Virus record (IMG/VR): IMGVR_UViG_3300033562_002159
Location: 1-38,932 of that record
DNA length: 38,932 bases
DNA from: a virus
Lineage: Duplodnaviria > Caudoviricetes
Strand: one strand, 5' to 3'
Shown piece by piece: positions 13,841 to 38,795 of this stretch (position 1 is its first letter; every line of letters starts with the position of its first letter). Under the pieces are notes generated by a model. The model made no database searches. It was not told where the DNA came from and saw only the letters and a list, made by a program, of their open reading frames with translations. The position numbers and the translations under genes were made by a program.

Positions 13841-13845
13841 AATTT

Positions 13846-16991: not shown

Positions 16992-17020
16992 ATAATAAAC
17001 AATTAATTATTAAAATCAAC
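16992..17020 (-). promoter_or_regulatory. Putative promoter G-TTGATT-N16-TATTAT for the protease-capsid operon
   Basis: Intergenic; same geometry as the other promoter copies. Confidence 0.55.
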
Positions 17021-17021
17021 T

Positions 17022-18845: not shown

Positions 18846-20286
18846 TTTTGTGTAAATCAATAATAAATTTCTCATCTATTAAAATTGATAATTCTTCAAA
18901 ATATTTACTATTAAAAATTTCATCCTCATTAAAATTCTCATCTTCTTTTTTTAAATCTTTTTTATTTTCAATTTGTTTATTATCTTCTTTTTTTAAATCT
19001 TTTTTAATCTCTTCTTTTTGTTTAGTTGGTAAACTTAAAAGTTCTCTAATATATATTTCAAGAGCCTCATCTACTCAAAGAATTCAATTAGAAGTAAGTT
19101 TTGTTATATTTTCAATTAAGGAATTATAATCAGTTCTTCATAAGTTTTCATATTTTAATTCTGGATAATATCATTTCGTATCATCAAAATTAATATCAAC
19201 AAGTTCTGGAATTATATTTTTATTAAAAGTGTCTCTAATTTGATTTGCAATAGCTCACAACGAAAGTAAAAATAAATCACTTTGATCTTCTCATAATGCT
19301 CTTGAACCACTTTGAGTGTCTCATAATTCAAGAAACTGAGCTAGTACATTTTTTGCTATTTCTCTATTATGATGTTTAATTGATTCAAATAAATCTGTTG
19401 ATTTATCTGCTTTAGTATCAGCAAATTCAAAAAGCCATCAATCTTCTTTTGGTCAAGGCATTACAATTCAAGTTTGTTCTGTTGATCTTACATTTCTTAC
19501 TATTCTTTGAGCTTCTAACTTATCGTCAGGAGTTGCATTTCTTGGTAAATAAATCAATGGAATTCAAACACTTTGTCTTTCGTGTCTAACTGCATCAAAT
19601 TTATAAAGTTTGTCTTTAATATACCAATGTTTATATGCACTTCTTAAAATAGAAGCTCATTCATAATTTAATCACTCTTGTCTAAAAGTAAATATAACTA
19701 ATTTTTCTTGAGGTATTGATATATTTGATGATTTAGATTTTCAATCTATTATTGAATCGTCTGCTCATACTGACATTTGAGTTACTCAAGGTTTTCAATC
19801 TTCTGTTTCCCATTTTTGAATTGTTGTTTGTTTTCTAGATGATAATTTTTTTAAATAAATCATTCAATCTTTAATTCAATACACTTTCTCGAAAACTGAA
19901 TATCAAAATGGTAACATTGTTAATATTTCTCTAAGTAAGTCATCCCAAGTATTTTCTAATAATTGAAATAAATTTTTATATACAAAATCTGTTATTTCTT
20001 TTGATTTTGTATCTATTTTTCAATCCTCACTTTCTGCGGACTCAATATACCATTTTGTTTGTCTTATTGGAAGCTCACAAACAAGTAAAGTGGCAAATAT
20101 TTGAGCATCTGATTTTCTCATTTTATCATAAACAATAACTCATTGAGGTCATTGTAAATCACTTCTATAATCTTCTTCAATAAATCCTCACACTATTTGT
20201 GTTCAAGATACTCATAATTCATTTAATAAATCTTTTTTAGAAGTGGATTTAATTACTTCTGCGAATTTCTTGTTTTTTGATTTCAT
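18832..20286 (-). CDS. Portal protein, Mu gp29/DUF935-like (484 aa)
   Basis: VYDKMRKSDAQI; MLPFGYSVFEKVY; NYEGASILRSAYKHW; IKHHNREIAKNVLAQFL; GSRALGE. Confidence 0.92.
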
Positions 20287-20306
20287 ATATACTAGAATAT
20301 TTAATT

Positions 20307-21707
20307 TTAAAAATCTTGTTTAAGTATATTGTTTTTTGATATTTCCTCAACTCTTTTTTTTCAAATTCTTTTTCTTTGTTCTAAGCCTCACTTAACAAAA
20401 GTTTTATTTATATCTGCTAATAATTTAAATGAAAGTTTATCGACTCATAGATACATTAATCAATATCTCAATGCATCTGCAGCATGATCTTCTCAATCAC
20501 TATTTAAATCCTCAACTTTTACTTTATCATAAATTAATTCTGGTAATGTTTGAATTAAATTAAAACAAGTTTCGCAAACTTCTAAAATAGCGGTAATTGA
20601 GTCGCTATTTGGATCAAAATAATGTCTCAATGCTTCTCTTACAACATTCCATCAAATAATTCTCTTATTATTAGCTCAAATAATCTTCCATCTAAGTATC
20701 ATTCAAGCTTCATCTAGAAAACTTGTTCAAGTCGAATCACTTTTTTTATTTAAAACAGCAGGATCAATAACTACACACTCGATTTCTTCAGCAATTCAAG
20801 TTAAGGCTTTAATTTTAATTGCTAGTTGTTTGTAGGTGTGTTCCGTTACATATAATTCTCTATAACAAGTTATTTTTCAAGTAGTGGATTTGTTTAACCA
20901 ATAAATAGCAGAAGGTTTAGAGTAACCATAATCTCAACAAATGATTTTTCTTCATTCTGGAAGATGATTTTTACAAACATGTATCTCTCTTCTCCACTCA
21001 GTAAAATATTGTCACTCAAAAACATCCCAATCTCATTCTAAAAATGCCTTTCTTTGTATTTCTGGCAATCATTCGAGTGCTTGCACATAAAGTGGATCGT
21101 TTTCAATTAGTGTTGGATTATCATAAACAAAAGATTGTGTAAAGGAATATTCTTCAGCATATTCATTTTCCTCAAACTCTCTATTAATCCATAATCTCTT
21201 AACCCAATTGTGTCAAATCCCTCAAGGATTAGTTGTAGCAAAGAAGTTTGGAATAATTCATTTTTTAGTTGATCTAAGAGAGCCCATTAAACTTTTCCAC
21301 TCTTTGAATGTCCAATGAGTTAATTCCTCTATAGCTATAAAATCATATTCCACTCATTGATATTTCAAAACATCTTGAAGATTTCTGCAGAAAGAAAATT
21401 TAACAGTTGATCAATTGTCAAAAGTCATAATTCATTTTGATTGATTATAATTATATATATGTTGTGGTAATTCAGTACATATTGGAATAATAGTATTTTC
21501 ATAAACTTCCGGGAATGTTCTTCTTAAAACCAATCATCTAACTTTAAAGTCTCAATTACATTGAGCACTTACTTCACTTCTTAACCAATAAGATTTTCAA
21601 CCACCTCTAGCACCTCAAAATAGTCTATATTTTGCTATCATTAAACTACATTCTTCTTGTTTTGGATGTAGTGGATATATTATAATTTCTTCCAACTCTT
21701 CACTCAT
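20307..21707 (-). CDS. terL: Terminase large subunit (466 aa)
   Basis: Walker A YRLFGGARGGGKS (two Gly are TGA); Walker B DFIAIEELT; TTNPGGIGHNWVK; AFLEGDWDVFEGQYF; GDYGYSKP; DHAADALRY. Confidence 0.96.
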
Positions 21708-21716
21708 CTTAATTTT

Positions 21717-22277
21717 TTATTTTTTTAAATTATCTTTTGAATTAAAAGGACTTGCTGGTCTAGCGAAAACTACTTGCATTTTTCATTTTAAATTTAAATC
21801 TTCTTCTCTTTTTTCAATATATCAATGCTTTGACAATAGTAACTTAGTTATTGTTGGATTATAGATTCAACTCAATCATCACACAATTAATTTTTGAGCT
21901 TGTTGAGTTCTTAAATCATTTAACATATTAGCAAACTCTTCTTTTCACTTCTCTTTCTCCCATCTTTCAAAAGTTTGAACAGCAAATCAGGTGAAAATAG
22001 CAAATCACTCCATAGTTGGTATTTTAACTCTTAATTTATTTTCCCAAGATTTTGAACTTCATGTATTTGAAATTGAATTACTTTTTACTAATTTAAACCA
22101 CGAATCTTTGCTTTTTTTCAAATATTTTACATATTCTTTTCTTAAAAATATTATATCATATTCTGATGGCCTTCATCATTTAGATGTAGTTTTTCATTTA
22201 TTTATTTCTTTAAGTGTTTTTTCTTTTTTCTCTTTATCTATTCATATATATTTTTTTTTAACCACAATATACTTCAT
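21717..22277 (-). CDS. terS: Terminase small subunit, P22 gp3-like (186 aa)
   Basis: GGRPSEY...PTMEGFAIFTG...LIVGGLSGIYNPTITKLLLSKHGY; directly upstream of terL. Confidence 0.85.
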
Positions 22278-22305
22278 TAAGTAATAAAATAATATTTTTA
22301 ATAAA

Positions 22306-22563
22306 TTATTTAAAATTATTATTTTTAAATTCTTGAATAAATTTTTGATCTCTTATAGCTTTAATATTATAATTAATATCAAACCATTCATCAGTATTAA
22401 ATATGTAAACTACTCATTCAAAAATAGAAATAATAGTTGGAACATAAGTAAAACAAAAACAAAAATATAAAACTCATTGTATGTATTTTCATAAATAGAA
22501 TTTATGTACACCAATTGAACCAAATAATATTGCTAAAAATCAAGCAAAATATTTATTTCTCAT
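22306..22563 (-). CDS. TM2-domain (NINE) membrane protein (85 aa)
   Basis: MRNKYFAGFLAILFGSIGVHKFYLGKYIQGVLYFCFCFTYVPTIISIFEGVVY, a canonical TM2 motif. Confidence 0.9.
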
Positions 22564-22731
22564 AATAAATTAAATTAATAAATTAAATTCATTTTAAAAT
22601 ATAATATTAATAAATTATTTATATAAAGGATAAAATAATCTATTTTTCTTATTTTTCTTTTTTTTAATGTTTTACATAATTTTTGAAAAGTTGTTTTAAA
22701 GTGTTTTGAAATGTTTAAATTTCTCATAAAT

Positions 22732-22989
22732 TTATATTATTTTTAAAGTTATTAAATAATTGTATATTTTCTCATAAACTTCTTCAGTTTGATTATCAAA
22801 AAATTTTGAAATATCTTCTATAATAGAAAATATTTCTTTTAAAATTTTAAAATTAGATAATTTTATTTCATTAATAAAATTAGCATTACTAAAGTTATAA
22901 TGTATATTTTTTTCTTCACAATACATTCTAATATGTCTTTCTTCTAATGGGTTTCAAATTATTTCTTTTATTCAATATTCATCTGTCAT
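22732..22989 (-). CDS. Hypothetical protein (85 aa; the frame stays open further upstream without an ATG)
   Basis: MTDEYGIKEIIGNPLEERHIRMYCEEK...; extends ORF-track 22732..22926. Confidence 0.5.
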
Positions 22990-23147
22990 TAATTCTGATA
23001 ATCACCGACCTATATTTATGAAATTTTTTCATAATATATTTTTATAATCATAAAATTAAAAATTATAATCTTTTAGTTTTAGTTTTTAAATCAATATATT
23101 GTTTTTAAATACTAATATTCACTTTATATATATCATATTGTTTTAAA

Positions 23148-23312
23148 TTAAAAAAATATATAAAATATAATTATTAATATAATAAATCAAATAATATACC
23201 TACTTTCATAAATCATATCCTCTAAGCCTCTTTTTAAAGTTCTAGAATTTTTATTACTTATGTTATAAGTATGTTTTCTACAATTACAATCTCTTATAAT
23301 TAATGTTTGCAT
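23148..23312 (-). CDS. Small hypothetical membrane protein (~54 aa)
   Basis: MQTLIIRDCNCRKH... with a hydrophobic C-terminus. Confidence 0.4.
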
Positions 23313-23322
23313 AAATTTATAG

Positions 23323-23484
23323 TTAAGTGATATTTATTTTTATACTATCTTTGATTGTTTTTCTAGTTTCTTTAACTCAAATTTGAAATCAAATAATAGT
23401 AAATAAAAATAACATAAATATTCAAACAAATATAATTATAATTAAGTCTTTCACTTCGTAAATTGAAATTATTGCAGTTTCCAT
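23323..23484 (-). CDS. Small single-TM hypothetical protein (53 aa)
   Basis: METAIISIYEVKDLIIIIFVGIFMLFLFTIIGFQIG...; first ORF after a promoter repeat. Confidence 0.5.
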
Positions 23485-23550
23485 AATATAAATATTAAAA
23501 AATAATAAGTATATTTGTTTTTGTTTTTGATTAAGTATTTCTCTTAATTG

Positions 23551-23595
23551 AACACATCTTACTCATTTTTCTTTTTTAGACAACTTTTTTATCTA
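23551..23595 (-). promoter_or_regulatory. Repeated promoter copy (TAGATAAAAAAG-TTGTCT-N16-TAAGAT)
   Basis: Near-identical to the copies at 27592, 32022, 36066 and 36381. Confidence 0.8.
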
Positions 23596-23611
23596 TTCTC
23601 ACTTATTAATT

Positions 23612-23633
23612 AAAAAAAAGACCTTGGTCTTTT
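23612..23633 (-). terminator. Rho-independent terminator after ssb
   Basis: AAAAGACC-AA-GGTCTTTTTTTT. Confidence 0.7.
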
Positions 23634-23636
23634 AAT

Positions 23637-24068
23637 TTAAAACGGAATATCTTCAATTGAAATAGCATCTCTATTATTTTTTTTATATCAATTTTGATTT
23701 TCAGTTACATTAAGTGAATCAGTTATTCAATCTTGCTCTCTTTTTTTCTCTAATAAAATGATATTTGAAGCATTGATTTGATGTTTGTATCGCTTAGTTC
23801 AATCTTGAGCTTCCCAAGAAATAGTTTGCAACTCTCATTTAATAAAAACTTTTTGACCTTTTGATCAATATGTAGTAATAATTTCGGCTAATTTTCACCA
23901 TATTACAATGTTGTGAAACTGAACTTGTTCTTGTTTTATTCACTCACTATCGGTGTAATTTTTATTTGTAGCTACTGAAAAATTTGTAACACAACTTCCA
24001 TTTGGTGTTTGTTTCAATTCTATCTCAGAAGTAATTCTACCTATTAAATTCACTTCATTTAAATCCAT
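23637..24068 (-). CDS. ssb: Single-stranded DNA-binding protein (143 aa)
   Basis: MDLNEVNLIGRIT...FSVATN...FHNIVIWGKLAE...KGQKVFIKGELQT...DGTKRY; C-terminal EDIPF. Confidence 0.97.
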
Positions 24069-24084
24069 TTTTCTTTTTTAAAAA

Positions 24085-24669
24085 TTAAATAATTTTTCTT
24101 TTTTTTAATTCAAAATAACAATTTCTAGTGGTAGTAATATCTACCATTGCATCATGTGCTCAATCAAATCATTTTCCAAATAATATTTTATGTAATTCAA
24201 TTAACTTAGGCCACTTATATGTTCAAAATTTTCCTGGTATTTTACAAAAGTCAACAGTATTAAGCATTGTACAAAAAGATTTAGCATTTACTATATCCAT
24301 TACCTCTTTAAGTCTAAATTCATTATCTCAAAGTATTCTTTTAAATTCAAATTCAAGAGCTTTATTATCAAAATTAATATTATGTCAAACTATTAAATCG
24401 ACATCTTTAATTATAGAAACGAGTTCAGGTGCAAAAGATCTAAATCTAGGTTCATTTTTTATATCATTAAAATAAAATCCATGTATTTTAGAAGCTTCTA
24501 CACTTATCTCAATCTCTGGATTAATTAAAAGATTAATTTTTCTTTCATTACTTTCATGAAATCAATTTTCTTGATATTCTCAAATTATACCTCAAAATTG
24601 AAGTATAGCTGGTGGATTGAATCAAGTAGTTTCTGTATCATAAAATAATATTTTTGTTACTTTATTCAT
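24085..24669 (-). CDS. DEDDh 3'-5' exonuclease, DnaQ-like (194 aa)
   Basis: FYDTETTG; IVGHNINFD; WPKLIELH...GAHDAMVD. Confidence 0.92.
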
Positions 24670-25154
24670 TATGCAATATTATTATTTTGATAAATTCAAT
24701 TATATAAGTCTCACTTTTCTGATTTAAAGAAAATCATTTGAGCTATTCTTACTCATTTTTCAATTAGTAGATCTGATTGAGTTACATGCAATATTCATCA
24801 CATTGGTCAACTAAATCAAGCATCATACCATCAACTTGTAATAAAATTTCATCATCTATTAAGTGTACTTCTAGATACAACAAACGAAGAAATTCAATTA
24901 GGTAAACTTATTTTTTCTCAAAATAAAATATCATATCTTCATGGCTTTAATTGTATTAAATCTCAAGAAAATATTAACTCATCTCTTGTACAATGCTCTC
25001 TACTTGTTTTTGTTAATATATTTAATCATCAAGTGTTTATTTTCCAAATTCTATTAATTGTTAAATCGATTCAATTTTGTTGTAATTGTTCTTGAACATC
25101 CTCTACCTCAAGTATTTTATTTTCTATGATATATTTAGGATTTACTACTGTCAT
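24669..25154 (-). CDS. Trimeric dUTPase / dCTP-deaminase family protein (161 aa)
   Basis: QQNGIDLTI; SRSTLNRGG; SGGYDAGFSG; GVRIAQMIF; YNGIYQ. Confidence 0.88.
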
Positions 25155-25164
25155 ATTTATATAA

Positions 25165-25377
25165 TTATTTATTAAATTTTATTTCTTTTTTTGATATAGT
25201 GATTATTTTTTCACCATCAATATTTCAAATTTTTTGATTAAAGACTTTACATTTTACATTATCTCAAAGTTCTTCAATTATAACTCATTCATAAAGAGGA
25301 TATCATTCATTCTTTTCTCAAATGAACCAAATATCACTTCAAGGATATATGATTTTTTTTGCTGTAAATTTTCTCAT
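25165..25377 (-). CDS. Hypothetical protein (70 aa)
   Basis: TAATG-coupled to the upstream DpdA-like gene; open in code 25. Confidence 0.55.
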
Positions 25378-26171
25378 TATATTACATCTTTTATCATACT
25401 TATATTTTTTAAAATACAAGCCAATTGACTTGTACTTAATATTCAATCGTAATTAAAGTCTACTTTTTCTTTAATTTTTCAACCTGGTATTTGTAAATCT
25501 TGATTATATGTTTTATTATACATTCAAGTCATAAAAGCACTACAACTATCATTACTTACAATCCAAGAATATTGTTTTACATCAATTAAATCTTGTAAAG
25601 ATTCTCATAATCATAATAAATGAACCGGCTTATTGATATCAAGATAGAAGTCTAACATTTCCATCATTATTTGTCTAGATTTAGTTATTTCAACTTTATC
25701 TTTTTCTCAAACACTTTTTGTAATACTTAATATTGACATAGCTATCATATCTACCTTTTCATTTTTTAATGCCCATTTAAATCATAAACAGTAAGTCATT
25801 AAATTATCAGCTTGTACCACATAAGCTAATTTTCATTTATATCAATAAGAGGTTGCTAATATAGAAAATTCTTCAAAAGCTTCTTGTGTTTTTTTATTAT
25901 CATAAAGATGGTCTGGACAAAATATTACATCAACTTCTAATAACATTGCTTTTATAATTAGATTTTCAGCATCTTCTGGCTCTCAATTTTCAAATAATCA
26001 ATTATCAAGATAAAGTTTTTTTCAAGTTCTTTGAAATTCTTTCACTTGTTTAGCATATTCATTATCACATTGTATATTTAAAAGATGAGATAATACTAAA
26101 AGAAAATCACTTTGTCATCCTATTTTAGGGTCGTTTATATATTTTGTAGGTGTAATTATACAATACTTCAT
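25377..26171 (-). CDS. dpdA: DpdA-like DNA guanine transglycosylase (TGT fold, 264 aa)
   Basis: LYLDNGLFENG; IFCPD; AYVVQA; KPVHLLGLG; SNDSCSAF, matching TGT/DpdA motifs; clustered with folE/queD/queE. Confidence 0.8.
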
Positions 26172-26251
26172 AAAACTTAACTTAAAAAATAAAAATAGTT
26201 TTGAATCGTTTCGGATTTTCTTTAATTTAATCTATTTTTATATCAATTATT

Positions 26252-26392
26252 TTATCTACTTTTCTTTTTAGGATATAGAATAAAATAAATTAAATCACAA
26301 ATTTTTAATTTTTCAATAGTTAAATCAATTCAAGTTTCTTTCTCTTCTTTCTCAAGATACTCAAATCTTTCTTTTAATTCATCAATGCTCAT
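26252..26392 (-). CDS. Small hypothetical protein (46 aa)
   Basis: MSIDELKERFEYLEKEEKETGIDLTIEKLKICDLI; short ORF with an AT-rich leader. Confidence 0.45.
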
Positions 26393-26481
26393 AAATTTAT
26401 ATTAGTATAGTATTGTAAATAAGTATCTTGTTTTTACTTGAAAAATATATCTTTGTTCTTTTTTTTTCAAATTCTTTAAGT

Positions 26482-27165
26482 TTAAGTTCTTTCGCTTCTT
26501 TTATTTCATTTATTTGTATCATTTTTTAGTTTTAAGATTCAAAATGCCATATAATTCAAAACATCAATTAATTCATCATATATTTTAGGTTCAATTTTAT
26601 CTAAATTAGTAATTCTATGTAATTTCATTTCACACAAATTTGCTAAACCTTGTATTGTTAAAATCTTCCAACTATCTCAATACATCTTTGTTCTTTCGAT
26701 CATTAAATTATGAGCCTCTCTTAATATTTTTTCAATTTTCTCCATATCATTTACTTCTTCTTCTATTACTTCTTCTTCTTCTATTACTTCTTCTTTTTCC
26801 AAAATAATTAACTCACTTAACTTATTTAACTTATTTAATAAATCTTCAGATATTGAGTAGTTAATTGACTCTAGTATTCATTTTACAAAGTTTTGAAATT
26901 CAATATCTTTAGTAAATTTCTCATCAAATTCTTTTGCTTCATTAATTTTTTGTCTTTTTTTAAGTTCTTCTAAGTAATATTTTATTACTTGTTCAAATCT
27001 ATTTTTTCAACAAGCAATATCCATTAATGTCTCTTTTGACATTTTATTTATAACTTCATTATTGTATTTTTTTTTATTTAATTGTTCAAATCTTTTTTTT
27101 AACTCTAAAAATCTTTCAACCTCATAATCACGAAGCTCTCTGTTATATTTTGGACTTATTATCAT
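26482..27165 (-). CDS. Protein with a C-terminal DUF1599 (all-alpha NTP-pyrophosphatase-like, nucleotide-modification-associated) domain (227 aa)
   Basis: ERTKMYGDSWKIL...EMKLHRI...YDELIDVLNYMAF; acidic EEVIEE linker. Confidence 0.72.
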
Positions 27166-27167
27166 AA

Positions 27168-27524
27168 TTACATATTAGCATATAAATTTACTCCATTTTC
27201 TCAATCTTCATTGATTGATATTTTGTTTATAGAATACTCTGGAGAAAAATACTCTAAAAGAGCTTCAGCTACTTGTTCGCAACTTCATACACTATATCAC
27301 ATATAAATTCATTCAGTTTTTTTGTAAAGATTTTCAATAGCTTTCGCAACTTCATTTTGCATAATAAAAAACTCTAACTCTCTATCATTATGAGTAACTT
27401 CAAACTCAATCTCAATATTAAAAATATGTCTATGTACATCTCTTAGAAAAATAACCTCTTCTGGAGCATTACTCCACTTATGATTACCAATAAATGCAAA
27501 CTTTACATTTATAAACTTTTTCAT
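27168..27524 (-). CDS. QueD-like T-fold protein, DpdL-type candidate CDG decarboxylase (118 aa)
   Basis: HKWSNAP..VIFLRDVHRHIF (LxxxHRHxF); HNDRELEF; GSCEQVA; NEDGENG; ORF-track 27309..27524 extended through TGA. Confidence 0.75.
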
Positions 27525-27591
27525 AATATTACTTTAAATAATAAAATATTTATAAGGTGTTTTTAATTCTTCTCTGAACTTTTATCTTACA

Positions 27592-27636
27592 AACACATCT
27601 TACTTCTTTTTCTTTTTTAGACAACTTTTTTATCTA
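27592..27636 (-). promoter_or_regulatory. Repeated promoter copy overlapping the end of the MT-A70 gene
   Basis: TAGATAAAAAAG-TTGTCT-N16-TAAGAT. Confidence 0.8.
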
Positions 27637-28180
27637 TAAAAATACTGTTTTCTATTTGATTTCAAAATACATCCCATCATTCAGTTGAATTTCTTGCAAA
27701 AAGTTCTAATTTATTTCAATTACACATTTTTTCAATATTGCTTCTAATAATATCAGGTTTTTTAGAATGTCACTCCCTATCAGCAATTATAACATTACTA
27801 ATATTTTTATTCAATATTTTAGGCTTTCACTTTACACCAATCAAACAAGCTTCTACATTACTTCTAGTATAAGATCATATACCAAAACATATTTTTTTAC
27901 TCTTTGGATAAGTTTTTACCCAATTAAATCAAATAGTTTTATACTTAAATCACCAACTCTCAATTACCTCAATTCATTCTTTAATTAGAGGGAATGTAAT
28001 CCATATAAATAAAATACAATCATTGTTGCAAATTTTATTAACATCTAGATTTTTTATATCATTTAATGTCATTGATTTATAATACTTCGCTGTCTCTCAA
28101 CTATTATTTTCAATATAATTAGCTCTTTTTGAATTATAACTCCGAGGTGGATCTGCATAAATTACATCATATTTCTTCAT
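27617..28180 (-). CDS. MT-A70 family adenine N6-methyltransferase (187 aa)
   Basis: KYDVIYADPP[CGG]SY; LFIWITFP; SWGFKYKT; GSYTRSNVE; HSKKP; LELFAR...GWDVFGNQ. Confidence 0.93.
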
Positions 28181-28198
28181 AGTTAAAAATATAAAAAA

Positions 28199-28402
28199 TT
28201 AAAATCATTTTAAACTAAATCATAATTGAAAAATATTCCACAATAATTCATTATCAACTGTTTGAGATTTAAGTTTAAAACTAAAATCTTTTCAATAAAT
28301 ATTAATTAAATCTTTACTTACAAATTCAAAATCTAATAAATTTATTATTGATTTATTTTCATAAGTTTTTATAAGTTTTCAATATCTAAAAGCTGCTATC
28401 AT
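28199..28402 (-). CDS. Hypothetical protein (67 aa)
   Basis: Open in code 25 between queE and the MT-A70 gene. Confidence 0.5.
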
Positions 28403-28421
28403 AAAAATGTATTAAAAAATA

Positions 28422-29111
28422 TTATTTTCATTTTCAATTTCAAAACCACAACAAATGAGATCTTGTACAATATCTATAATTTTTCAATAAGCAATATTGA
28501 ATCAAATAATGATTTATTTGAGATTTTATATCAATTCACAAAGGCATTAAATAAATTAACATATCTTTAATTTGCTCTTTATATTTTTTTAGAAATTGTT
28601 CCATTTCTTTGATATCTTTTAAATTTCAAATAACAAATTTTAAATCTTTATTTCAAGTCCATCAAATAGAATTAAATATTTGCATATCATATTCTTTATT
28701 TCAACTCATTCAAAGTTTAGGACTTATATTTGTTTGTAATAAATTTATTCATCTTGTTAATTCTTTACTTCAATTAGTCTCTAATTCATAACTATAGTAA
28801 TCGCAATCTACTACTAAAGAAAGTAATTTATCTTGAATGGCTATAATTTGTTCTTGAAATAAGGTTGGCTCTCATCAAGTGAAAATTATATGCTTACAAG
28901 GATATGATTGTATTTTCTTAATAATTTCCTCTAAGTGCATCATTTGAGCTTTTTCTATTAAAGGATCCCAACTATATTTTGAATCACAGAAATCACATTT
29001 TAAATTACATCACCAAAATCTTATAAATATTGACGACTTTCAAACATTTCTTCACTCTCATTGAAGAGAGTAAAAAATCTCACTTATTGGAATTAAAATT
29101 TTATCTTGCAT
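28422..29111 (-). CDS. queE: 7-carboxy-7-deazaguanine synthase (radical SAM, 229 aa)
   Basis: EIFYSLQGEG...FIRFWGCNLKCDFCDSKYSW; IIFTGGEP; IETNGS; NISPK. Confidence 0.95.
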
Positions 29112-29135
29112 ATTTTTTTATTAAAATTAAAATAA

Positions 29136-29169
29136 TATTTTCAATTAAGAAAAAACTTAATTGAAAATA
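29136..29169. other. Perfect inverted repeat at the 5' end of the queE transcript
   Basis: TATTTTCAATTAAG-AAAAAA-CTTAATTGAAAATA just downstream of a promoter copy. Confidence 0.6.
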
Positions 29170-29207
29170 ATATACTCCTATTTTTTTTTAGACAACTTCT
29201 TTATCTA
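29168..29207 (-). promoter_or_regulatory. Repeated promoter copy (TAGATAAAGAAG-TTGTCT...TATATT)
   Basis: Variant of the repeat upstream of queE; spacer 15 or 17 depending on the -10 chosen. Confidence 0.7.
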
Positions 29208-29215
29208 CTTTTCCC

Positions 29216-29485
29216 TTAAAATCAAAATATAAATTTAGATAATGTTTTTTTTTGTGATAACTCTAAACAATTATCAAATATCTCTTGAATAGTTTCAGAG
29301 GTGGATTCACCTTGATATCTCCGATTAAAATAATCTCTACACTCTTCATTAAATTTTCAAAATGTTTTATATTGTTTTTGATAATTTTCTATTTTAGAAT
29401 ATTTATCTAATTGTTTTTAAGTTTTCAATTTATACAATTGTTTTCTTAATTGTATAAAACTATAATAAACTCACTCTCAATACAT
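29216..29485 (-). pseudogene. Hypothetical 89-codon ORF interrupted by one in-frame TAA (29417-29419)
   Basis: ATG at 29485; the frame continues with protein-like composition for 66 codons after the TAA. Confidence 0.4.
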
Positions 29486-29510
29486 AATATAAAATTATTA
29501 TAATAAACAC

Positions 29511-30227
29511 TTAATCTCTTTTCTTACAATGGTACCAAAATTCATTTCTTGTTGCTTCACTATGTAAAAATAAACCTCACATCAATGCAGTAGCTGTACT
29601 ACTACACGGTTCCTCAACTCATCTAACTTTCATACAATTATGAATACAATCAATTGAAATTGCTATATTTTCAGTTTGTAATTTATTTTTAAGAAATTCA
29701 AATATTTCTTGAATTAAAAATTCTTGAGTTTGGGGTTTTCTTGAAAAAAAATCTACAATTCTACTAAATTTTGACAATCAAATTATTTTTTTTCCTGGAA
29801 TGTATGCAATTTGACAATATCAATCAAAGTTTTGAAAATGATGAGCACACATACTGTGTACTTCAATATCTTTAACAACAACCATTCAATTATAATTATT
29901 CTTATTGTCAAAGTCTGTTATTTTAAGATCTCAAATATCATTAAATAATGATGAGCAAGTTTCATTTATATACATTCTAGCTACTCTGTCAGGAGTACCT
30001 ACAAAATTATCATCATTAAGATCTAGTCATAAAGCTAACATAAAATCTTTAAAAGTTCTTTCAATTTCTGCTTTTTTATTCATTTTATTTTTATTAAAAA
30101 TTAAATTTGCTTTGTAATTAATATATAATTTTCAAGCTTGTGATGAGTTTTCAAAATCATAACTATGTACTTCGTTTTGTTCTCATTGAGTTTTTGTACA
30201 ACTTTTATCTTTTTTTAAATTAAACAT
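29511..30227 (-). CDS. folE: GTP cyclohydrolase I (238 aa; alternative start at 30083 gives 190 aa)
   Basis: [54 protein letters not shown]. Confidence 0.95.
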
Positions 30228-30244
30228 ATTTAAATAATTAATAA

Positions 30245-30700
30245 TTAACAATATGGATTATATGTAGCTGAACTTGTTGGAGTTTCCCACACCTTAAGAT
30301 AAATAAGTTTTATATCATATTCATCATTAAGAGGTTTTTTAATCATTTCAAACCAGAATTTTGCCAAATTTTCTGCAGTAGGAATAAAATTCACAAAATG
30401 CATTTTGGCTGCATCTTGATCTTCAAAACTTAAAAGTAAATTAAGTATGTTTACATATTTATCATCTTTATAAAAAACAGCTCAATGATCAAAAAATTTA
30501 TCAATATAATTTATCATTATTTTTTTTAAGTCTGAATAATCTACAACCATTCAAGTGTTTGCTACTCAAGATTTTTGAATAACTTCTCATTCAACTCAAG
30601 CTTCAATCACATATCTATGTCAATGTAAATTTCTACATTTACTTTCGTGATTTGGTATTCTGTGAGCCATATCAATTTCTATTTGCTTTGTAATTAACAT
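30245..30700 (-). CDS. queD: 6-carboxy-5,6,7,8-tetrahydropterin synthase (151 aa)
   Basis: MAHRIPNHESKCRNLHGHRY; GMVVDYSDLK; FDH; PTAENLA; VWETPTSSA. Confidence 0.95.
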
Positions 30701-30710
30701 TTTTATTTAG

Positions 30711-31028
30711 TTAAGAATTATTTATATGTAAATTATCTAATCTACAATTTTTTTTATTTCAATCTTTATATTTAACAAAATTGGAAGCTTTTCATACAAA
30801 AGTTTCGTATACTAATTTTGCTACATCGAAGTGTGTACAACTTCAATCATGCCGTTGAATTTGAGAATATCAATACTTAGAAAAATCTAATTTTTTAATT
30901 TTTTCTTTAATTTTTCTAAAGTTATTATTACCTACATGTACTAATCTTGAAAGACTTTTAATCTCTCAAAAATTACTAATTTCATAACAATCCTCAAATC
31001 ACTCAATAACCTTCCATTCTTTTTTCAT
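30711..31028 (-). CDS. NUMOD4 domain protein with a degenerate HNH motif (105 aa)
   Basis: EWKVIEGFEDCYEISNFGEIKSLSR; KLVYETFVG...VKYKDGNKKNCRLDNL (catalytic His absent). Confidence 0.82.
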
Positions 31029-31037
31029 AACCTCAAC

Positions 31038-31193
31038 TTAAAGAATATTTATTATTTTATCAACTATATAAAAAGCAATATCTATAGGTAAAAATATAGG
31101 TAAAAATATATATATAATTCACCACATAATTCACCATACTTTAAATGTATAAATCATTGAAACTAACCAATAAACAAATCAAATTATTTTCAT
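31038..31193 (-). CDS. Small hydrophobic membrane protein (51 aa)
   Basis: MKIIGFVYWLVSMIYTFKVWGIMWGIIYIFLPIFLPIDIAFYIV. Confidence 0.55.
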
Positions 31194-31714
31194 AGTTTTA
31201 AAATTAGATTATAAAATTTAAAACTTCATATTTTAATTTCCTCAATAATATTTTTTTCTAAACATTTTTCAAGAAATTCTTTTCAAAATTTTGAAATAAA
31301 TTGATCTCTACGAATAGGTTTTTTTCTTTCTTTTAGAAATTTTACCATATCATTAAATTCATTTTTTACTTCTTTTTCATTAATCACTTCATCATTTTTT
31401 ACTTCTTTTTTCTTAGTTATTTTTTTATCTTTTCTTGATTTAATAACTTTTTCAACTATTTTTTTATCTTTTCTCATTTGATCTTCTACATCATTTTCAT
31501 TTACATTACTTTCAAATATTTGAATATTTGAAAGTTTCATAATTTTCGATTCAAATAACCGATGTGGATTATGATTTTTCCGAAGTGTAACCCTTCTTTT
31601 TCAATTAAGAGTTAACCACTTCAATTCTTTCTCTTTGTTATTATGATTAGAAATTACTACTCTTTTTTCATCATTATATTTATAATGAATGAATTCTTTT
31701 ATATTGTGTAACAT
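31184..31714 (-). CDS. Hypothetical protein (176 aa), possibly DNA-binding
   Basis: Extends ORF-track 31283..31540 both ways through TGA; NGKRRVTL[CGG]KN segment resembles NUMOD4/HNH-associated beta hairpins. Confidence 0.6.
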
Positions 31715-32021
31715 AAAATTAGAATTAAAAATATAATTTTTTATTTAATTAAATTATTTAAAATATTTTCAGATAGTTTAATATTATTTAATATAATATC
31801 TATATTAAAAATAATATATTTTCATTGAACTACTCTTGAAGTTTTTCATAATTCTATTTTTTGTTATTATAGATTTATGTTTTATAATTAATTTTCATAT
31901 TAATTCTTCTTTTGTAAGTTCCTGATTATATTTTTTCATAATAATTAAATTATAATATAAAATTTAAATTTGTATTGTTATCAATTTCTCTTAATTGCGA
32001 GAGGTTGTTATCTCAAACTTG

Positions 32022-32066
32022 AATACATCTTACTCATTTTTCTTTTTTAGACAACTTTTTTATCTA
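32022..32066 (-). promoter_or_regulatory. Repeated promoter copy
   Basis: TAGATAAAAAAG-TTGTCT-N16-TAAGAT. Confidence 0.8.
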
Positions 32067-32072
32067 AATATA

Positions 32073-32468
32073 TTAATTTTTCTCATAAAATTCAATAATA
32101 TTTATTGCATCTAGTGCTCAATAAGCAATTTCAGCACCTACATTATTTATTTCTTCTAATTTTTTAATCCATTCCCTTTGTTCTTTTGAAACAATACTAA
32201 CACTTGTTCATAATTCTCAATTTTTTAATCTTTTTTTCTTTCTCTTTAATTCTAAAAATAATAAACTTCATCTTTTTAAAATAATCATAAAATCTGGTAC
32301 TCAAGAAGACATTCACATATCTTTTTTCTTTTTCATCATTTTTATAATATTATAAGTTCATTTTTGTCCACTCTCATTTGCAATATGAGAAAATTTATAC
32401 TTTTTTAATCTTAGCCACTCAGCTAATGTTATAGCTTCTTCATCTTCAAGAGGTATTATGTTATTCAT
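32073..32468 (-). CDS. VRR-NUC / PD-(D/E)xK nuclease (131 aa)
   Basis: FSHIANES...KKDMGMSSGVPDFMI...LFLELKR...VSKEQREWIKKL. Confidence 0.9.
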
Positions 32469-32835
32469 AATTTAATCAAGTTTTATAGGTTTCAATTTCA
32501 TACTTTAATTGATTTATAGTTAAATCTTTTCTTGTTGTTATTCAATATCTTTTATAAATAACTAATTTTTCATTCTCGTATTCACCTCAAATTTTTTCTA
32601 CATATTTTCTTATAAAAAAATCTAAATCTTGAAGTAATTTATTTCTATTTTCATCGTCTCAACATCAAATATCCTCAAATACTAAAGCTCATAAACTTCA
32701 ATCTCTATTTAATTGAAATAATTTTTGCTCTAATTCATTAGAATAATCTTCCTTTTTTACAATAAAGGTAATTTTCAATTCTTCAAATTTATTTTTTGAA
32801 ATATTTTGTATTTTTGTCTCTTTAATAATTAACAT
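32461..32835 (-). CDS. Hypothetical protein (124 aa)
   Basis: Open in code 25; C-terminal KRYGITTRKDLTINQL. Confidence 0.6.
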
Positions 32836-32839
32836 AATT

Positions 32840-33292
32840 TTATTTTTTATAATTTAAAATATTAATCTTTTCTCAATTTAAAATCCTTTTCTCAATTTCT
32901 CTCTTGTTTCAAGTTACATATTTATCAACTAATCAATGTTCTTTTAATCATTTAACAATACATATATTATTTTTAAATAGTCGCAAATATGCAAATTGAT
33001 TTTTATTTAATATGTGAGCAAAGCACCAAACTTTAACATCATTGATACTAAATTTATCTCAAGATATTTCACAAGTTAAATTTCAATCCTCATCTTGATT
33101 TTCAATTAAAATAGAATTAAACATTGCTTTTTCACCTCATCAAGAGTTTATTTTTTCTTGTTTTTTTCTTGAAACTAATTTTATTTTTTTTGTTAGTTTT
33201 TTATAAACATTTTCCTCAAAGTAACAAATTGAACAATAAGGTATTAATGGATTTTTATTTAAAACTCAACACTTTTTACAATATTTTGCCAT
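32840..33292 (-). CDS. NinG-like / HNH-family nuclease with N-terminal CxxC zinc ribbon (150 aa)
   Basis: CKKCG...CSIC; CEISG...FAHILNKNQFAYLRLFKNNI...EH...D. Confidence 0.65.
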
Positions 33293-33295
33293 TTT

Positions 33296-33760
33296 TTAAT
33301 TTTTAATTTCTAAAATCTTATTTTTAATTTCAATTTTTTTTAACTTTTCTAATTTTTCAATAGTTGTTTCTAAATTAAATTTTTTTTCTTCAAAAGCTAA
33401 TTTCTTTAAAATTTCATCTCTTTTTAGTATAAAATTTTTTTTAATATTTGGATAAATTTTTTTTAATATTTGTTGATTTCTTTTTCTACTTTCCTCTCTC
33501 TCTTCTTCTGTATATAATTTCTTAAGTTCTTTAGGTGTAGGTAAAGATAAATAAAGAGTTTTTCATTTTTCTTTTTTTATTTGAGAAAAATATAAATTGC
33601 AATCATAATTAAGTAAATATACTTTCTTCTTTCAATCTTTTGTTAATTTTTCAACCATATCATTCCATTGTTGAAGAGTTTTATTATTTAGAATATATTC
33701 CTCATTATCGAAGGTTGTAACAATAACAATATTTTTAACTAAGTCACTGCTGTTACTCAT
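33296..33760 (-). CDS. Hypothetical protein (154 aa) downstream of the replication initiator
   Basis: Open ORF overlapping the initiator stop; charged helical C-terminus. Confidence 0.6.
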
Positions 33761-34548
33761 GTATATAAATTATTAATATAATGTTTCTTTGCTGGATCAA
33801 TTAAAACAATAAAATAAGGAATTCATTCTCTATTCTTAGATCTCAATTTATCAATTGTTTGAATTTGATCTAACCAATAAAAATTTTTTCAAGGATTATT
33901 TATTTTTGAATCACAAGTAATAAAAGAAATAATAAAAGTAATTTCTTTTTCAGAAAATCCATCAATTCTTTTTAATTTGTTAACCGAATTAGCAAATATT
34001 TGTATAATTTCTTTTTCGTTTTTTGATTTTAATTTATATAAAATAGAAGGAGTTTTATTATTAATGTGAGCATTAAAAAAAATTTTAGCCTCTATGTATT
34101 CAAAACCTTCTTGAAAATATAATAAATCATTTACTTGAGGATATAATGCCTTCTTTATTATTATTTCTTTATTTGTAATTCTATCTTTATTAGTTTGCGG
34201 ATTTTCCGTCACCGGATTTTCCGTCACCGGATTTTCCGTCACCGGATTTTCCGTTATGGTATTAATTGATTCACTATATAAAATATATTCAACATCCCAT
34301 TGTCATTTATTATTTTTAAATCTTTTTCTTATTAAATATCAAAGATTTTCAAGTTCTGCTAATCAACTCGAAATTCAATCTTTTCAATCTTTTCAATCTT
34401 GACATATTCTATTTACTGCAAAATCCCAATTATCGGGCTTACTTTGAATATATCAAAATAATCATTTAGCTTTAAATGTTAAATCTTTATTATTTAATAC
34501 ATTATTTGGAGTTATACCAAATCTGTCAATTATAGTTAATTTACTCAT
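33739..34548 (-). CDS. Phage replication initiator (N-terminal winged HTH, internal iterons; 269 aa)
   Basis: PNNVLNNKDLTFKAKGLFGYIQSKPDNWDF...DGKDGISSGLAELENLGYLIR; internal TENPV repeats. Confidence 0.88.
34198..34254. repeat. Four 15-bp-period iterons (CGGATTTTCCGT-CAC), probable replication origin
   Basis: Exact tandem GC-rich, internally palindromic repeats inside the initiator gene, next to an AT-rich tract. Confidence 0.85.
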
Positions 34549-34587
34549 TTTATTAAAATAGAAAATAAAATTATATAAAAATATAAC

Positions 34588-34842
34588 CTATCATGTATTT
34601 TTTTCTAATTCATTTTCTCTTTGATTTTTTAATAAAATATCAAAAGTTTTTTCCGAAATTCACAAAGCTCAACAAATCTTCAAAATAGTCCTCTTTTGAG
34701 GCTTATTTTTATTTTTATTATTTATTACTCTATAATATGTATTTACATTAATTATTTTATTCATTCCTTTAGGTAAACTTATTCATCTCAATTGTCTCAA
34801 CTTATCAAAAGTCAAAGTTTCAATTTTTATTTTTTTATCCAT
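34588..34842 (-). CDS. XRE/Cro-like HTH transcription regulator (84 aa)
   Basis: FDKLRQLRGIS...INVNTYYRVINN...PQKRTILKICGALGIS. Confidence 0.75.
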
Positions 34843-34873
34843 TTTATTTTATTATAAATATAAAACTTAATTA

Positions 34874-36001
34874 TTATTTTTTAGTAGGTTTTTTAGTAGG
34901 TTTTTTCTTTTGTACATCTTTTACCTCTTTTTCTTTTACCTCTTTTTCTAGTGAGTGTTCTTCATTAATACACTCCTTTTTTAATTCTAAAACCTTTTTA
35001 TCATTCTTAAGTTTTAATATTTTTTCATCTAATTTCTCTAAAAACAATAAGCCTTGCTCTTTGTTTGCTTCTGTTATAGTATTTGTATTTATTATATTCT
35101 TCCAAGTAGCAGCCCTTATTATTTCATTTTTTTCTTTTGTATATCTTATATTTCATTTAGAATCTAATTCATTTGGATATAATTCTATTGATAAATTCCA
35201 CATTGTATTCCAAGCAGTAATTATATTTTTAATTTGTTTAGCGGTAATTTTTTCAATATTTACATTTGGTAAATCTTTTTTAATTCAATCATCTGTATAT
35301 TTAAAATCATTAACTATTTCATTTTTAGATAATTTTAAATTTTCAATATATCATTGAAAAATTGAGAAATTAGGCTCAATATCAATAGGGAATTGATTAA
35401 ATCTATCTTTAGTTAAATATTTTTGACTTCATTTAGTTAAGATATAATGTTCTCAAGTTTTATTAATTCACATAAAACAAACTAAATCCATATATGCAGC
35501 GATATCTCTTGCTGTTTGACCATTTAACATCGGAACTATCTTATCAATTTTATCCTCATCTTTACTTTCTTTTGCTAAAGCGGTAAAAATAATATGTTTA
35601 TCGAGGTTTCTGAATTTTCTTAAAATAGCTTTAATTTCGTCTTGAATTTTTCACCAATCTCTTCAATCAAGATCTCTTCATCATTTTTTAAATTTAATAT
35701 CATCTTTAATTATTTCATTAATTTCTGTAATTGAATCAATAATAATAGTATCAATTTTAAATCAACTTTTTTCATTTTCATTATTTTCAACATAAATTAA
35801 AGCATCTTTTAAATCTTTAATAGACTCGATTTTTATACCAATAGGATTAGTATGCATAACTGAGGCTAATCCTCACTCTGCACTTAACCAAAAAGGATTA
35901 GATGCTGTTGAGCCAAACACTGTTTTTCATGAACCACTCTCTCCATATACAAGACATTTTATTTTATGATCTTGTATATTAAATCTTTCAACTTTCGTCA
36001 T
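34874..36001 (-). CDS. AAA_24 / Sak4-like ATPase (recombination/annealing; 375 aa)
   Basis: Walker A LVYGESGSGKT (last Gly is TGA); Walker B IIIDSITE; RDWGKIQ; HIIFTA; IAAYMDLV. Confidence 0.88.
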
Positions 36002-36065
36002 AATTTTAAACAATTAAACAAATAAACTTACATTTATAATAACACATTATGTATTATTATAAATA

Positions 36066-36107
36066 TAAGCTTACTTCTTTTTCTTTTTTAGACAACTTTT
36101 TTATCTA
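36066..36107 (-). promoter_or_regulatory. Repeated promoter copy driving the replication operon
   Basis: TAGATAAAAAAG-TTGTCT-N16-TAAGCT. Confidence 0.8.
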
Positions 36108-36149
36108 AAGTTAAAAAATTATTATATTTTAGAATTTTATTTATTTAAT

Positions 36150-36379
36150 ATTAAATACATCAAACATATTTAATATTAAATATGTTTGATATATTTAAAG
36201 CTATCTAGAATAGCTAGTTTTTTATAGTCCTTTCTTAGACTCATTAACCAATTTATCACTAATACCTTTTAGTTTGTCACCATTGACAGTCGAGAACTCT
36301 GTCCCGAATTAGGAATCGAACCTTGCTACTATTTTGTATCTAAAATTATTAATAATTTAATTAAGTATTTCTCTTAATT
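36150..36379 (-). ncRNA. Candidate ~230-nt structured non-coding RNA with a tRNA-like T-loop
   Basis: Downstream of a promoter copy; no ORF; locally GC-enriched; consecutive hairpins including AGG-UUCGAUU-CCU, UGUCA-AUGG-UGACA, AGCUAU-UCUAG-AUAGCU and a terminal 48-nt palindrome. Confidence 0.5.
36151..36198. repeat. 48-bp palindrome with one mismatch
   Basis: TTAAATACATCAAACATATTTAAT|ATTAAATATGTTTGATATATTTAA; the mismatch is a G-U pair in minus-strand RNA. Confidence 0.9.
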
Positions 36380-36380
36380 G

Positions 36381-36425
36381 AACACATCTTACTCATTTTT
36401 TATTTTAAGTCAACCTTTTTATCTA
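36381..36425 (-). promoter_or_regulatory. Repeated promoter copy (TAGATAAAAAGG-TTGACT-N16-TAAGAT)
   Basis: 36361-36400 is identical to 23531-23570. Confidence 0.8.
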
Positions 36426-36449
36426 AAAATTAAATAAAAATAACAATTT

Positions 36450-36737
36450 TTATATTTTATAACAATGTTGTTTGAAATAATAATCTAACTCTTTATTGCT
36501 TAAAAGTTTAATAAAATCACTTTTTACTTCTTTCGTTAAAGAGGTATTATTTATTCTTAATATTTCTATAATTTGTCAAGGGAATACTAAGTTTTGAAAT
36601 ATTGTATGAAATGCTTGGTGAGAAACATTCTTTAACATAATTTTATTATCAAAATGATTTGTTCATTTTACTTTAGTTCAATCATTTAATATTCAATTTT
36701 GACATACATTATGGTGACAAGTTAATCAATTTTTCAT
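36450..36737 (-). CDS. Small HNH-family protein (95 aa)
   Basis: TCHHNV...GTNHFDNKIMLKNVSHQAFHTIFQN. Confidence 0.65.
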
Positions 36738-36755
36738 AATATTAAAATTAATAAT

Positions 36756-36785
36756 AAAAAAAAAGATAATATTAAAATTATCTTT
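36756..36785 (-). terminator. Rho-independent terminator after the peptidase gene
   Basis: AAAGATAAT-TTTAAT-ATTATCTTT running into T9. Confidence 0.65.
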
Positions 36786-37362
36786 ATATAAACATGTATT
36801 TTGTTCTTTGATCTATTGTTTTTAATACCTCTTTAATATTACAAGAATAAATCCATTCTCTTTTGTGTGTATTAAATGCATAATTATCAATCATATAATC
36901 TCTCTTATTAGTATTGATTATATTTAAATAATGCTTTAAATCTGTTCATTGAAAAGAAAAATAATTTATTCCATTAATTGTTCAATCTTTTACATCTTCT
37001 GTAAATTTTTTATTAACAGAGATTCAAAGTATTATTGCATATTCTTGATTGATATATTTTACAACATCTTTATTTAGTGTAAAAGATTTTAATTCTGGAA
37101 TTTTCCAATTTCTATTGATAGAATTTTCAATTATGTAATTTAAAATATATCTAGTTACAATTCTTCATTCTGCTCAATAATTTTCAACAAACTTTCAATC
37201 AAAAATCATTTTATTACAAATTGTATCCAAATCATTTAAAGATAACATAATTCAACAATTATATGCTAAATTAACTGCACTTGAATATAAGGTACATTGA
37301 TATAATCTATCTTTTCTACTTCACTGATTTAATATATGATTATATAATTTAAATTTATTCAT
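36784..37362 (-). CDS. Papain-like cysteine peptidase, candidate endolysin (192 aa)
   Basis: LNQG...QCTLYS (oxyanion Gln, catalytic Cys), KHYLNII (His), MIDNY (Asn/Asp) in C1/C39-type order; at the end of the late region. Confidence 0.6.
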
Positions 37363-37404
37363 AAATTTATAGATAAGTTTCTAAATTTTCTCACTCTTTT
37401 TATT

Positions 37405-37596
37405 TTATTTTTTATTAATTTCTTTTTCTGAAGCTAAAATAGCTTCAAACTTTTCAAGTATTATTATTCTTTGAAGAATGATACTTTTTTTATAATTTTT
37501 TTCATTATCGTATCAAATCATTCTATCTATTGACTTAAATTCTTGATTAAGTTTTTTAATATCATTACTTTTATTGATGAAATTTAAATATTCCAT
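37405..37596 (-). CDS. Hypothetical protein (63 aa)
   Basis: MEYLNFINKSNDIKKLNQEF...; open in code 25. Confidence 0.5.
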
Positions 37597-37605
37597 ATAT
37601 TATTT

Positions 37606-37896
37606 TTAACAATTAAAATTAAAATATTTTTTTCAAAAAAATCTTACTGTAAAATAATATAAATAAGCCCAAATATAAAAATAAAATCTTTTATAAAAAA
37701 TTAAATTTTTTATATCTAATTTAATATATTCAAGTAAATAAATATCTGCAATTTTTCTATCAATATTATTTCATCACTTATTATATAATTCATCATGTTT
37801 ATTACAACAAGCTTTAAACATAATATTATATGGTGGCTTAAATTTCGCTCATTTACCTCCACATCAATTTACTAGATTTTCTTTTAATTCTTTCAT
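37606..37896 (-). CDS. Phospholipase A2-like protein (96 aa)
   Basis: NGCGGKG...FKACCNKHDELYNKGG...DRKIAD...AYLYYFTVRFFG: CCxxHDxxY plus downstream Asp. Confidence 0.75.
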
Positions 37897-37918
37897 AATA
37901 ATAAAATTAAAAAATAAA

Positions 37919-38194
37919 TTATTTTTTTAATAAAATATTTATAACTTGATCTATCTTTATATTATTTTTATCTATTTCCTCTTTAAGGTCACTTTTCATT
38001 ACATATAAATACTTTTGTAATGCTTCGTATTTTTCTTCTAAATTGATTATTTTGTTTCTATTTTCTAGTATTTTAGACTCTGCTCAAAAAACTAAACTTC
38101 ATCACTGAAATCATAATACTAATAAAAAAACAATAACACTAACCATTATTCACACACTAACTGACACAGAGTATTTTTCAATAGATTCTCCCAT
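37919..38194 (-). CDS. Single-TM plus coiled-coil protein, holin/XhlA-like candidate (91 aa)
   Basis: VSVGIMVSVIVFLLVLGFQGG TM helix followed by a coiled coil; located after the fibre genes. Confidence 0.5.
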
Positions 38195-38216
38195 TTTCTT
38201 TATATTAAAATAATAA

Positions 38217-38696: not shown

Positions 38697-38766
38697 AATT
38701 ATAATTATTAATATATAAAATATACTACTATAAGTAATATTGTAGTAGTACTATTTGGACTACATT

Positions 38767-38795
38767 AGTATATTTAATTTTTAGATTTATACAAC
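38767..38795 (-). promoter_or_regulatory. Putative promoter G-TTGTAT-N16-TATACT for the post-fibre/lysis block
   Basis: Overlaps the fibre stop codon; followed by a TACTAC..GTAGTA inverted repeat at 38723-38750. Confidence 0.55.

Follow-up and report, generated by a model that had tools for sequence, protein, structure and literature searches.

A low-GC tailed phage with a likely TGA=Gly, CGG=Trp, and CGA=Arg code and its inferred Gracilibacteria host family

General features of the phage genome

The sequence analyzed here, referred to as the window (positions 1..38932), is the whole of record IMGVR_UViG_3300033562_002159, a tailed phage. It measures 38,932 bases, carries direct terminal repeats, and has a GC content of 22.9%. 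All the called genes lie on the minus strand, and the main ones are listed in Table 1 together with the codons discussed below. A 953-aa tail-fibre-like gene, devoid of CGN codons, spans the termini of the record (from 2716 to 1, continuing from 38932 to 38787), and the genome is therefore circularly permuted. Identical proteins were found on a second contig of 39,070 bases, probably from the same sample.

The stretch between 24669 and 30700 is a DNA-modification cluster (FolE, QueE, QueD, DUF1599, a dCTP-deaminase-like protein, and MT-A70), a gene content that suggests 7-deazaguanine and m6A modification. Five copies of an element of ca. 37 bases, 89 to 100% alike and all on the minus strand (27600-27636, 36071-36107, 23559-23596, 32030-32066, and 29173-29207), are mostly intergenic within the non-structural region and could be a phage promoter or operator. 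An open frame at 8516-8740, after the 92-aa gene at 8737-9015, had no family match and is placed like a frameshifted extension of a tail chaperone; it contains a third CGA (around 8657-8659), upstream of the first ATG there.

Long reading frames covered only 14% of the window under translation table 11 versus 86% when TGA was read through. When the genes were aligned to those of relatives, 196 TGA codons could be placed: 61 lie at Gly columns, Trp columns received none, and 75 had too few partners. The phage thus has TGA at conserved Gly positions, as in translation table 25, and these Gly columns rule out code 4 (TGA=Trp). No tRNA genes were detected by ARAGORN in the whole window, and none of the 32 phage proteins scanned belonged to Pfam tRNA-synthetase or release-factor families; recoding machinery of the phage's own was thus not found.

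TABLE 1 Phage genome, CGG and CGA codons, and host tRNA loci considered in this work
Feature	Position	Strand	Gene or context
Whole phage	1..38932	-	Terminase, Mu-like portal, protease, capsid, tail tube, tape measure, SSB, MT-A70 methyltransferase, FolE/QueD/QueE
CGG	7267..7269	-	Tape-measure gene 6142-8511, residue 415
CGG	16797..16799	-	N-terminal extension of Mu-like head protease gene 15528-16964, residue 56
CGG, DPPW catalytic motif	28142..28144	-	MT-A70 gene 27617-28180, residue 13
CGG	29321..29323	-	ATG-less 66-codon open frame 29219-29416, putative gene only
CGG	30852..30854	-	NUMOD4/HNH gene 30711-31028, residue 59
CGG	31559..31561	-	ORF 31184-31714, residue 52
CGG, VTL-x-KN	31580..31582	-	ORF 31184-31714, residue 45
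CGA	23790..23792	-	ssb gene 23637-24068, residue 93
CGA	32981..32983	-	HNH-like ORF 32840-33292, residue 104
Ala-type tRNA-UCG loci	L341, L357-L360, L363		Six genomes

Codon usage and CGG sites

Among the 11,958 coding codons there were 695 TGA, 94 TGG, 6 CGG, 2 CGA, 3 CGT, 0 CGC, 299 AGA, and 16 AGG, i.e., Arg is dominated by AGA (299 vs 11 CGN codons), together with the low GC content. CGG made up 6 of the 11 CGN codons, while only 3.6% of the codons end in G in the other four-codon boxes, a share therefore above chance (binomial P of 9e-7, or 9e-5 if the G-ending rate is set at a generous 8%). The CGG:TGG ratio (0.064) was similar to that of the synonymous pair CTA:TTA (0.096) and far above CGA:TGA (0.003), which indicates that CGG acts as a synonym of TGG and not as the product of a general T-to-C error.

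A preliminary description of this DNA had flagged nine CGG and CGA codons, all of which are real, in frame, and on the minus strand; the seventh CGG (at 29321), listed there among the in-frame codons, falls in a short open frame lacking an ATG and not in a shown gene. In the MT-A70 gene (187 aa, PF05063, E value of 2e-30), the catalytic motif DPPW is spelled GAT CCA CCT CGG, as described, and the column of this CGG contains 118 W and 1 Y in 119 homologues (the top 120 of 1,143 matches, excluding the window's own). The gene had also been called otherwise intact, which is largely correct, as 51 of 56 highly conserved columns are matched, but the five misses (this CGG plus four more columns) leave room for some mild decay. 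The tape-measure CGG was likewise found at the usual Trp position, with 131 W, 17 Y, 1 F, and no R in 149 homologues (the best 150 of 1,980 matches less the window's own), 20 of which look like translations with TGA as Trp. In the NUMOD4/HNH gene, Trp had been considered plausible within GYSQIQ-x-HDG; the column does favor hydrophobic residues and not Arg, but they are Leu and Phe (7 L, 1 F, 0 R, and 0 W in eight homologues, seven of them hand-picked among the 20 best of 511 phage matches, plus one).

No aligned homologues were found for the other four CGGs (31580, 31559, 16797, and 29321): the search with the ORF carrying the first two found none, and relatives of the head protease align only from residue 104 on, leaving no column at residue 56. 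The three alignable CGGs of seven thus correspond to two Trp columns, one Leu column, and no Arg column, the pattern of CGG at Trp and never Arg columns that marks the Gracilibacteria clade 1 code. The statement that no CGG lies at a conserved Arg held, with no Arg among the 276 homologous residues at these three columns.

This last figure bears on whether CGG could be plain Arg in a code-25 phage, the cases at Trp columns being TGG-to-CGG missense mutations or sequencing or assembly errors. Such a change takes a single transition, and the four additional columns missed by MT-A70 would fit a decaying gene. Nevertheless, this explanation is hard to reconcile with the statistical excess of CGG, with T-to-C changes 20-fold rarer at TGA, and with the same CGG pattern being repeated across the host family (see below), and we regard it as very improbable.

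CGA sites and the reading of the code

At the CGA of ssb, the column (37 matches) is R16 H8 K5 N4 M2 Q1 S1, with no W or A, and the SSBs of two host-family genomes (G162 and G205) have the same neighboring residues with AGG/AGA at this site. Since the second ORF with CGA had no family match, viral contigs were scanned with its motif leaving the CGA codon free. The 51 matches had AGA/AGG (24), Lys (22), or CGA/CGG (5) at this position, and never Trp or Ala; collapsed to 28 distinct peptides, they were 19 R and 9 K. A full-length orthologue in L412, a phage with 24% GC and TGA=Gly, has AGG there. The label "NinG-like" given earlier to this ORF had no support in Pfam, PHROGs, or NCBIfam, although the motif itself is present in those 51 viral contigs. 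The proposal that CGA sits at Arg positions is borne out by both columns, which are led by Arg; by themselves they also allow Lys.

Column-profile log-odds favored Trp over Arg for the three CGGs (W +6.7 vs R -6.1) and Arg for the two CGAs (R +3.9, K +2.7, A -3.0, and W -4.2), in agreement with the CGG=Trp and CGA=Arg split that had been proposed on top of the TGA recoding. To judge from these alignments, TGA=Gly, CGG=Trp, and CGA=Arg is the best reading of the code of this phage.

A variant of this reading keeps CGG=Trp and makes CGA either Trp, as in the Absconditabacterales code, or Ala, as in a host from the six-genome subclade described below. The phage has only two CGAs, CGA=Trp is found in two of its relatives (L296 and L308), and a tRNA-UCG of Ala type exists in the host family. 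In contrast, Trp was absent from all 37 + 51 homologous positions, so the CGA at Trp columns expected from Absconditabacterales was not seen, and Ala was equally absent; besides, the phage SSB scored only 116 to 124 bits against five genomes with the odd, Ala-type tRNA, versus 126 to 134 bits against five other genomes of the family. The chances of CGA being anything other than Arg in this phage seem minimal.

Relatives of the phage and their codes

Relatives were defined by common portal, terminase, or tail genes. The nearest prophages sit in standard-code genomes: those of G258 (C1:124506-147994), G283, and G179 use TGA as stop and had CGG in 9 and CGA in 12 Arg columns. They are collinear with the phage, with 40 to 60% amino acid identity in most shared genes, but these three genomes were rejected as hosts because of their TGA stop and GC content of 40 to 48%. 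A second set of relatives (L008/L304, also L016) has TGA=Gly and plain code 25, with CGA in 13 Arg columns and CGG in one Arg and no Trp column. Finally, L296 and L308 read TGA as Gly, and their CGAs fall in Trp columns (2 in L296 and 8 in L308) but in no Arg column. As judged by these columns, the phage lineage would use four codes, namely, the standard code, plain code 25, TGA=Gly with CGA=Trp, and the split code of this phage.

No close low-GC relative turned up: scans of viral sequences with the tape-measure and DPP-CGG motifs, the capsid, and the tail tube retrieved only distant standard-code phages or nothing, and the MT-A70 motif gave no matches in the metagenome scan. The complete phage L412 (record G619, 36,226 bases), in which the stretch examined has the GC content and TGA=Gly code given above, has the HNH-like gene in common with our phage, but not the terminase.

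The likely host family

The class was reached by a TGA-specific pattern and, within it, a family of 96 genomes, mostly low GC and with TGA=Gly, which would correspond to "clade 1" of the order BD1-5; this order differs from the one holding the named Absconditabacteria. That the code would narrow down the host clade had been anticipated, and code, GC content, and the ssb gene do point to this one low-GC, TGA=Gly family outside Absconditabacterales as the probable host. The best matches of the phage ssb are those of the family, with ca. 65 to 75% nucleotide identity, a value inflated by the shared low GC, and it is closest to genomes without Arg-type tRNA-UCG. No direct host link was found: a portal homologue was absent from the 96 genomes, and no CRISPR spacer match was seen among the two best candidates scored per genome, a weak test.

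Syntenic stretches, 20 kb long at most, were compared among 41 genomes of the family and 20 others, sorted by their tRNA state. The alignments were dominated by a protein of ca. 4,200 aa (L194:2762-15355 in G205) that 193 of the order's 201 genomes possess, and the host CGG counts rest largely on this giant protein; G262 and G603 had no aligned genes and contribute nothing to the tallies. In the 33 family genomes without a detected tRNA-UCG, the 95 CGGs were distributed in 61 Trp, 0 Arg, 21 variable, and 9 other conserved columns (4 had too few partners), although the Trp cases do not represent independent events, as they come from only 10 distinct columns shared by kin. The same genomes had 61 CGAs, 7 in Arg columns and none in Trp columns, and both assignments were seen within single genomes (G320, G524, G505, and G196). 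The six sampled family genomes with an Arg-type tRNA-UCG had CGG in 4 Arg and 0 Trp columns and CGA in 39 Arg columns; two with an odd tRNA-UCG had CGG in 6 Trp columns and none of 11 CGAs in Arg columns; and the other families had CGG in 40 Arg and 3 Trp columns and CGA in 97 Arg columns. These 3 Trp cases come from two low-GC genomes outside the family, G330 (one) and G598 (two).

The single-contig genome G205 has 34 Rfam tRNA matches, among them those for Arg (TCT, two copies, CCT, and GCG), a CCG tRNA, Trp (CCA), and Gly (TCA), with no credible TCG or ACG tRNA. Its tRNA-CCG was matched in 71 of the 96 family genomes, in 68 of them over nearly the full length, but there was no near-full-length match in any of the 14 genomes with an Arg-type tRNA-UCG (G496, G255, G497, G498, G185, G499-G502, G504, G310, G174, G514, and G515), of which the sampled ones read CGG as Arg, a state that may be either retained or a reversion. 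A tRNA-CCG with Trp identity elements had been named as something to look for in candidate hosts, and A1:U72 and G73 (plus G3:C70), which are Trp-like, were found in all 30 examined. In the D-loop of these 30, however, G18 is missing and position 20 is an A, which counts as an Arg identity element; by the rule of Shulgina and Eddy, this is therefore not a clean Trp tRNA. Judging from its acceptor stem, we infer that it is charged with Trp.

The tRNA-GCG has C33 in 16 of 18 cases (the search pattern required G37). The tRNA-Arg(GCG) with this C33/G37 loop (G205 family, L370-L391) occurs in genomes without tRNA-UCG or tRNA-ACG that have, nonetheless, CGA at Arg columns; G495, for instance, contains 29 CGAs in 6,442 codons. 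G205 has a tRNA-like gene (L178:18055-18128) with a TTA anticodon call, U1:A72, and G73.

The mixed elements of tRNA-CCG raise the alternative that CGG is ambiguous, decoded as Trp with some Arg, with a phage that tolerates mixed products. The tRNA does keep both sets of identity elements (A20 with C35/G36 beside A1:U72 and G73), and CGG is rare, with 6% of the Trp codons. However, not a single CGG fell in an Arg column across the 33 host-family genomes, the phage tolerates CGG both within a catalytic motif and in a protein of the virion, and A20 may be hidden by the altered D and T loops. We consider ambiguous decoding improbable.

It seems to us highly probable that this is a tRNA-less phage relying on a low-GC Gracilibacteria (BD1-5) host with TGA=Gly, CGG=Trp, and CGA=Arg, where CGG is a near-synonym of TGG. 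In the proposed scenario, AT pressure would empty the CGN box and the host would lose tRNA-Arg(UCG). The lone host tRNA(CCG), with A1:U72 and G73, would be charged by TrpRS, leaving CGG free to change alone, and the CGGs of the phage would arise by TGG-to-CGG drift, now silent. The rare CGA would still be decoded as Arg, but in a non-standard way, probably through the host tRNA-Arg(GCG), often with the odd C33/G37 loop.

A candidate CGA=Ala code in six genomes

Six genomes among the 204 of the order (G492, G520, G521, G522, G214, and G542) carry a tRNA-UCG whose acceptor stem is of the alanine type. This tRNA has G1:C72, G2:C71, G3:U70, G4:C69, and A73, and no A20; the first four pairs and A73 are identical to those of the tRNA-Ala of G205. 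The G3:U70 pair is the alanine identity element. At nine aligned CGA sites of G521 and G522, homologues averaged 0.22 Ala and 0.04 Arg+Lys; these sites can be considered Ala-like because they resemble GCN reference sites (0.27 Ala and 0.07 Arg+Lys) and not AGR sites (0.03 Ala and 0.55 Arg+Lys). Homologues with solved structures have S/A, G/A, and A/Q/L at three of the CGA sites. Over seven distinct columns, the score was +4.7 for A and -6.8 for R, rising to +6.9 for A when two structure columns of G492 were added, a small sample from three of the six genomes.

These six host-family genomes are likely to use a TGA=Gly, CGG=Trp, and CGA=Ala code, as far as tRNA and alignments tell; the phage itself does not use the CGA=Ala state. 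We think it reasonably probable that the family represents a codon-capture series, in which CGG became Trp and tRNA-UCG was lost, and then CGA either remained as a rare Arg codon without a cognate tRNA (the state of the phage), came near extinction, or was recaptured by the tRNA-UCG with the Ala stem. The last, in the six genomes, would be an unreported three-codon bacterial code, and the phage lineage would span four codes. CGA=Ala was not found in print in the literature searched, a scope that stops short of the supplementary Codetta tables (42,109 genomes) of PMC13092985 and of Supplementary file 1 of PMC8629427.

Comparison with described codes and implications

The preliminary description was right that CGA and CGG to Trp are known in Absconditabacterales, but it understated the prior art, since the exact Gly/Arg/Trp combination is already listed for a Gracilibacteria genome, GCA_002412935.1 (UGA Gly, CGA Arg, and CGG Trp; Shulgina and Eddy 2021, PMC8629427). 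The same report gives CGG-to-Trp in "Gracilibacteria clade 1" as a provisional code, "pending additional evidence," for cells only, and rows 11 to 18 of its codon table have GC contents of 0.21 to 0.29, tRNA(GCG), no tRNA(UCG), and tRNA(CCG) in 6 of 8. Our phage resembles this clade (order BD1-5) in UGA=Gly, CGA=Arg, CGG=Trp, low GC, and dominant AGA; what differs is that here a phage uses the code, and that our comparison of 41 genomes backs the code and divides the family among three tRNA states. The Absconditabacterales code, as given there, shares UGA=Gly and CGG=Trp with the phage, but CGA is Trp instead of Arg.

Anaerococcus and Onthovivens, both Bacillota, have the same CGG=Trp and CGA=Arg split, but with a tRNA(ACG), presumed to be inosine modified, for the other CGN codons, while the BD1-5 genomes as tabulated list none (PMC8629427; PMC13092985). 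Among viruses, two phages (GCA_902730795.1 and GCA_902730815.1) follow the AGG-to-Met change of their Bacilli host without a tRNA of their own (PMC8629427); they similarly track a sense-codon change of the host with no cognate tRNA, although codon and host are different and there is no stop recoding beneath. The code-25 phages of Gracilibacteria/Absconditabacteria (mBio 2023, PMC10746230) have dense in-frame TGA=Gly as here, and the main text of that report, which leaves sense codons aside, contains no CGG, CGA, or Codetta. Plain code 25 has been applied in Gracilibacteria proteomics (PMC11452946). The bacterial sense reassignments listed in PMC13092985 and bioRxiv 10.64898/2026.05.03.722492 name neither the BD1-5 split nor CGA=Ala in those lists, and PMC13695967 deals with UGA only. 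No published CGG=Trp phage was found in the literature searched. The phage is, in this sense, a further case of a provisional host code and of the known habit of phages of following host reassignments.

With these data, a code that was "pending additional evidence" becomes well supported and a virus is shown using it. Standard code-25 annotation places Arg where catalytic Trp residues belong; in addition, the public protein records encountered here were mistranslated, with TGA as Trp. CGG and CGA usage is a host marker and, given that the relatives of one phage lineage fall in four codes, a tree can be used to follow code switches that accompany the host. The candidate CGA-to-Ala change comes with a specific tRNA open to charging assays and, if true, would add a new kind of sense-codon reassignment to those of bacteria and put the codon-capture model to a direct test in nature.
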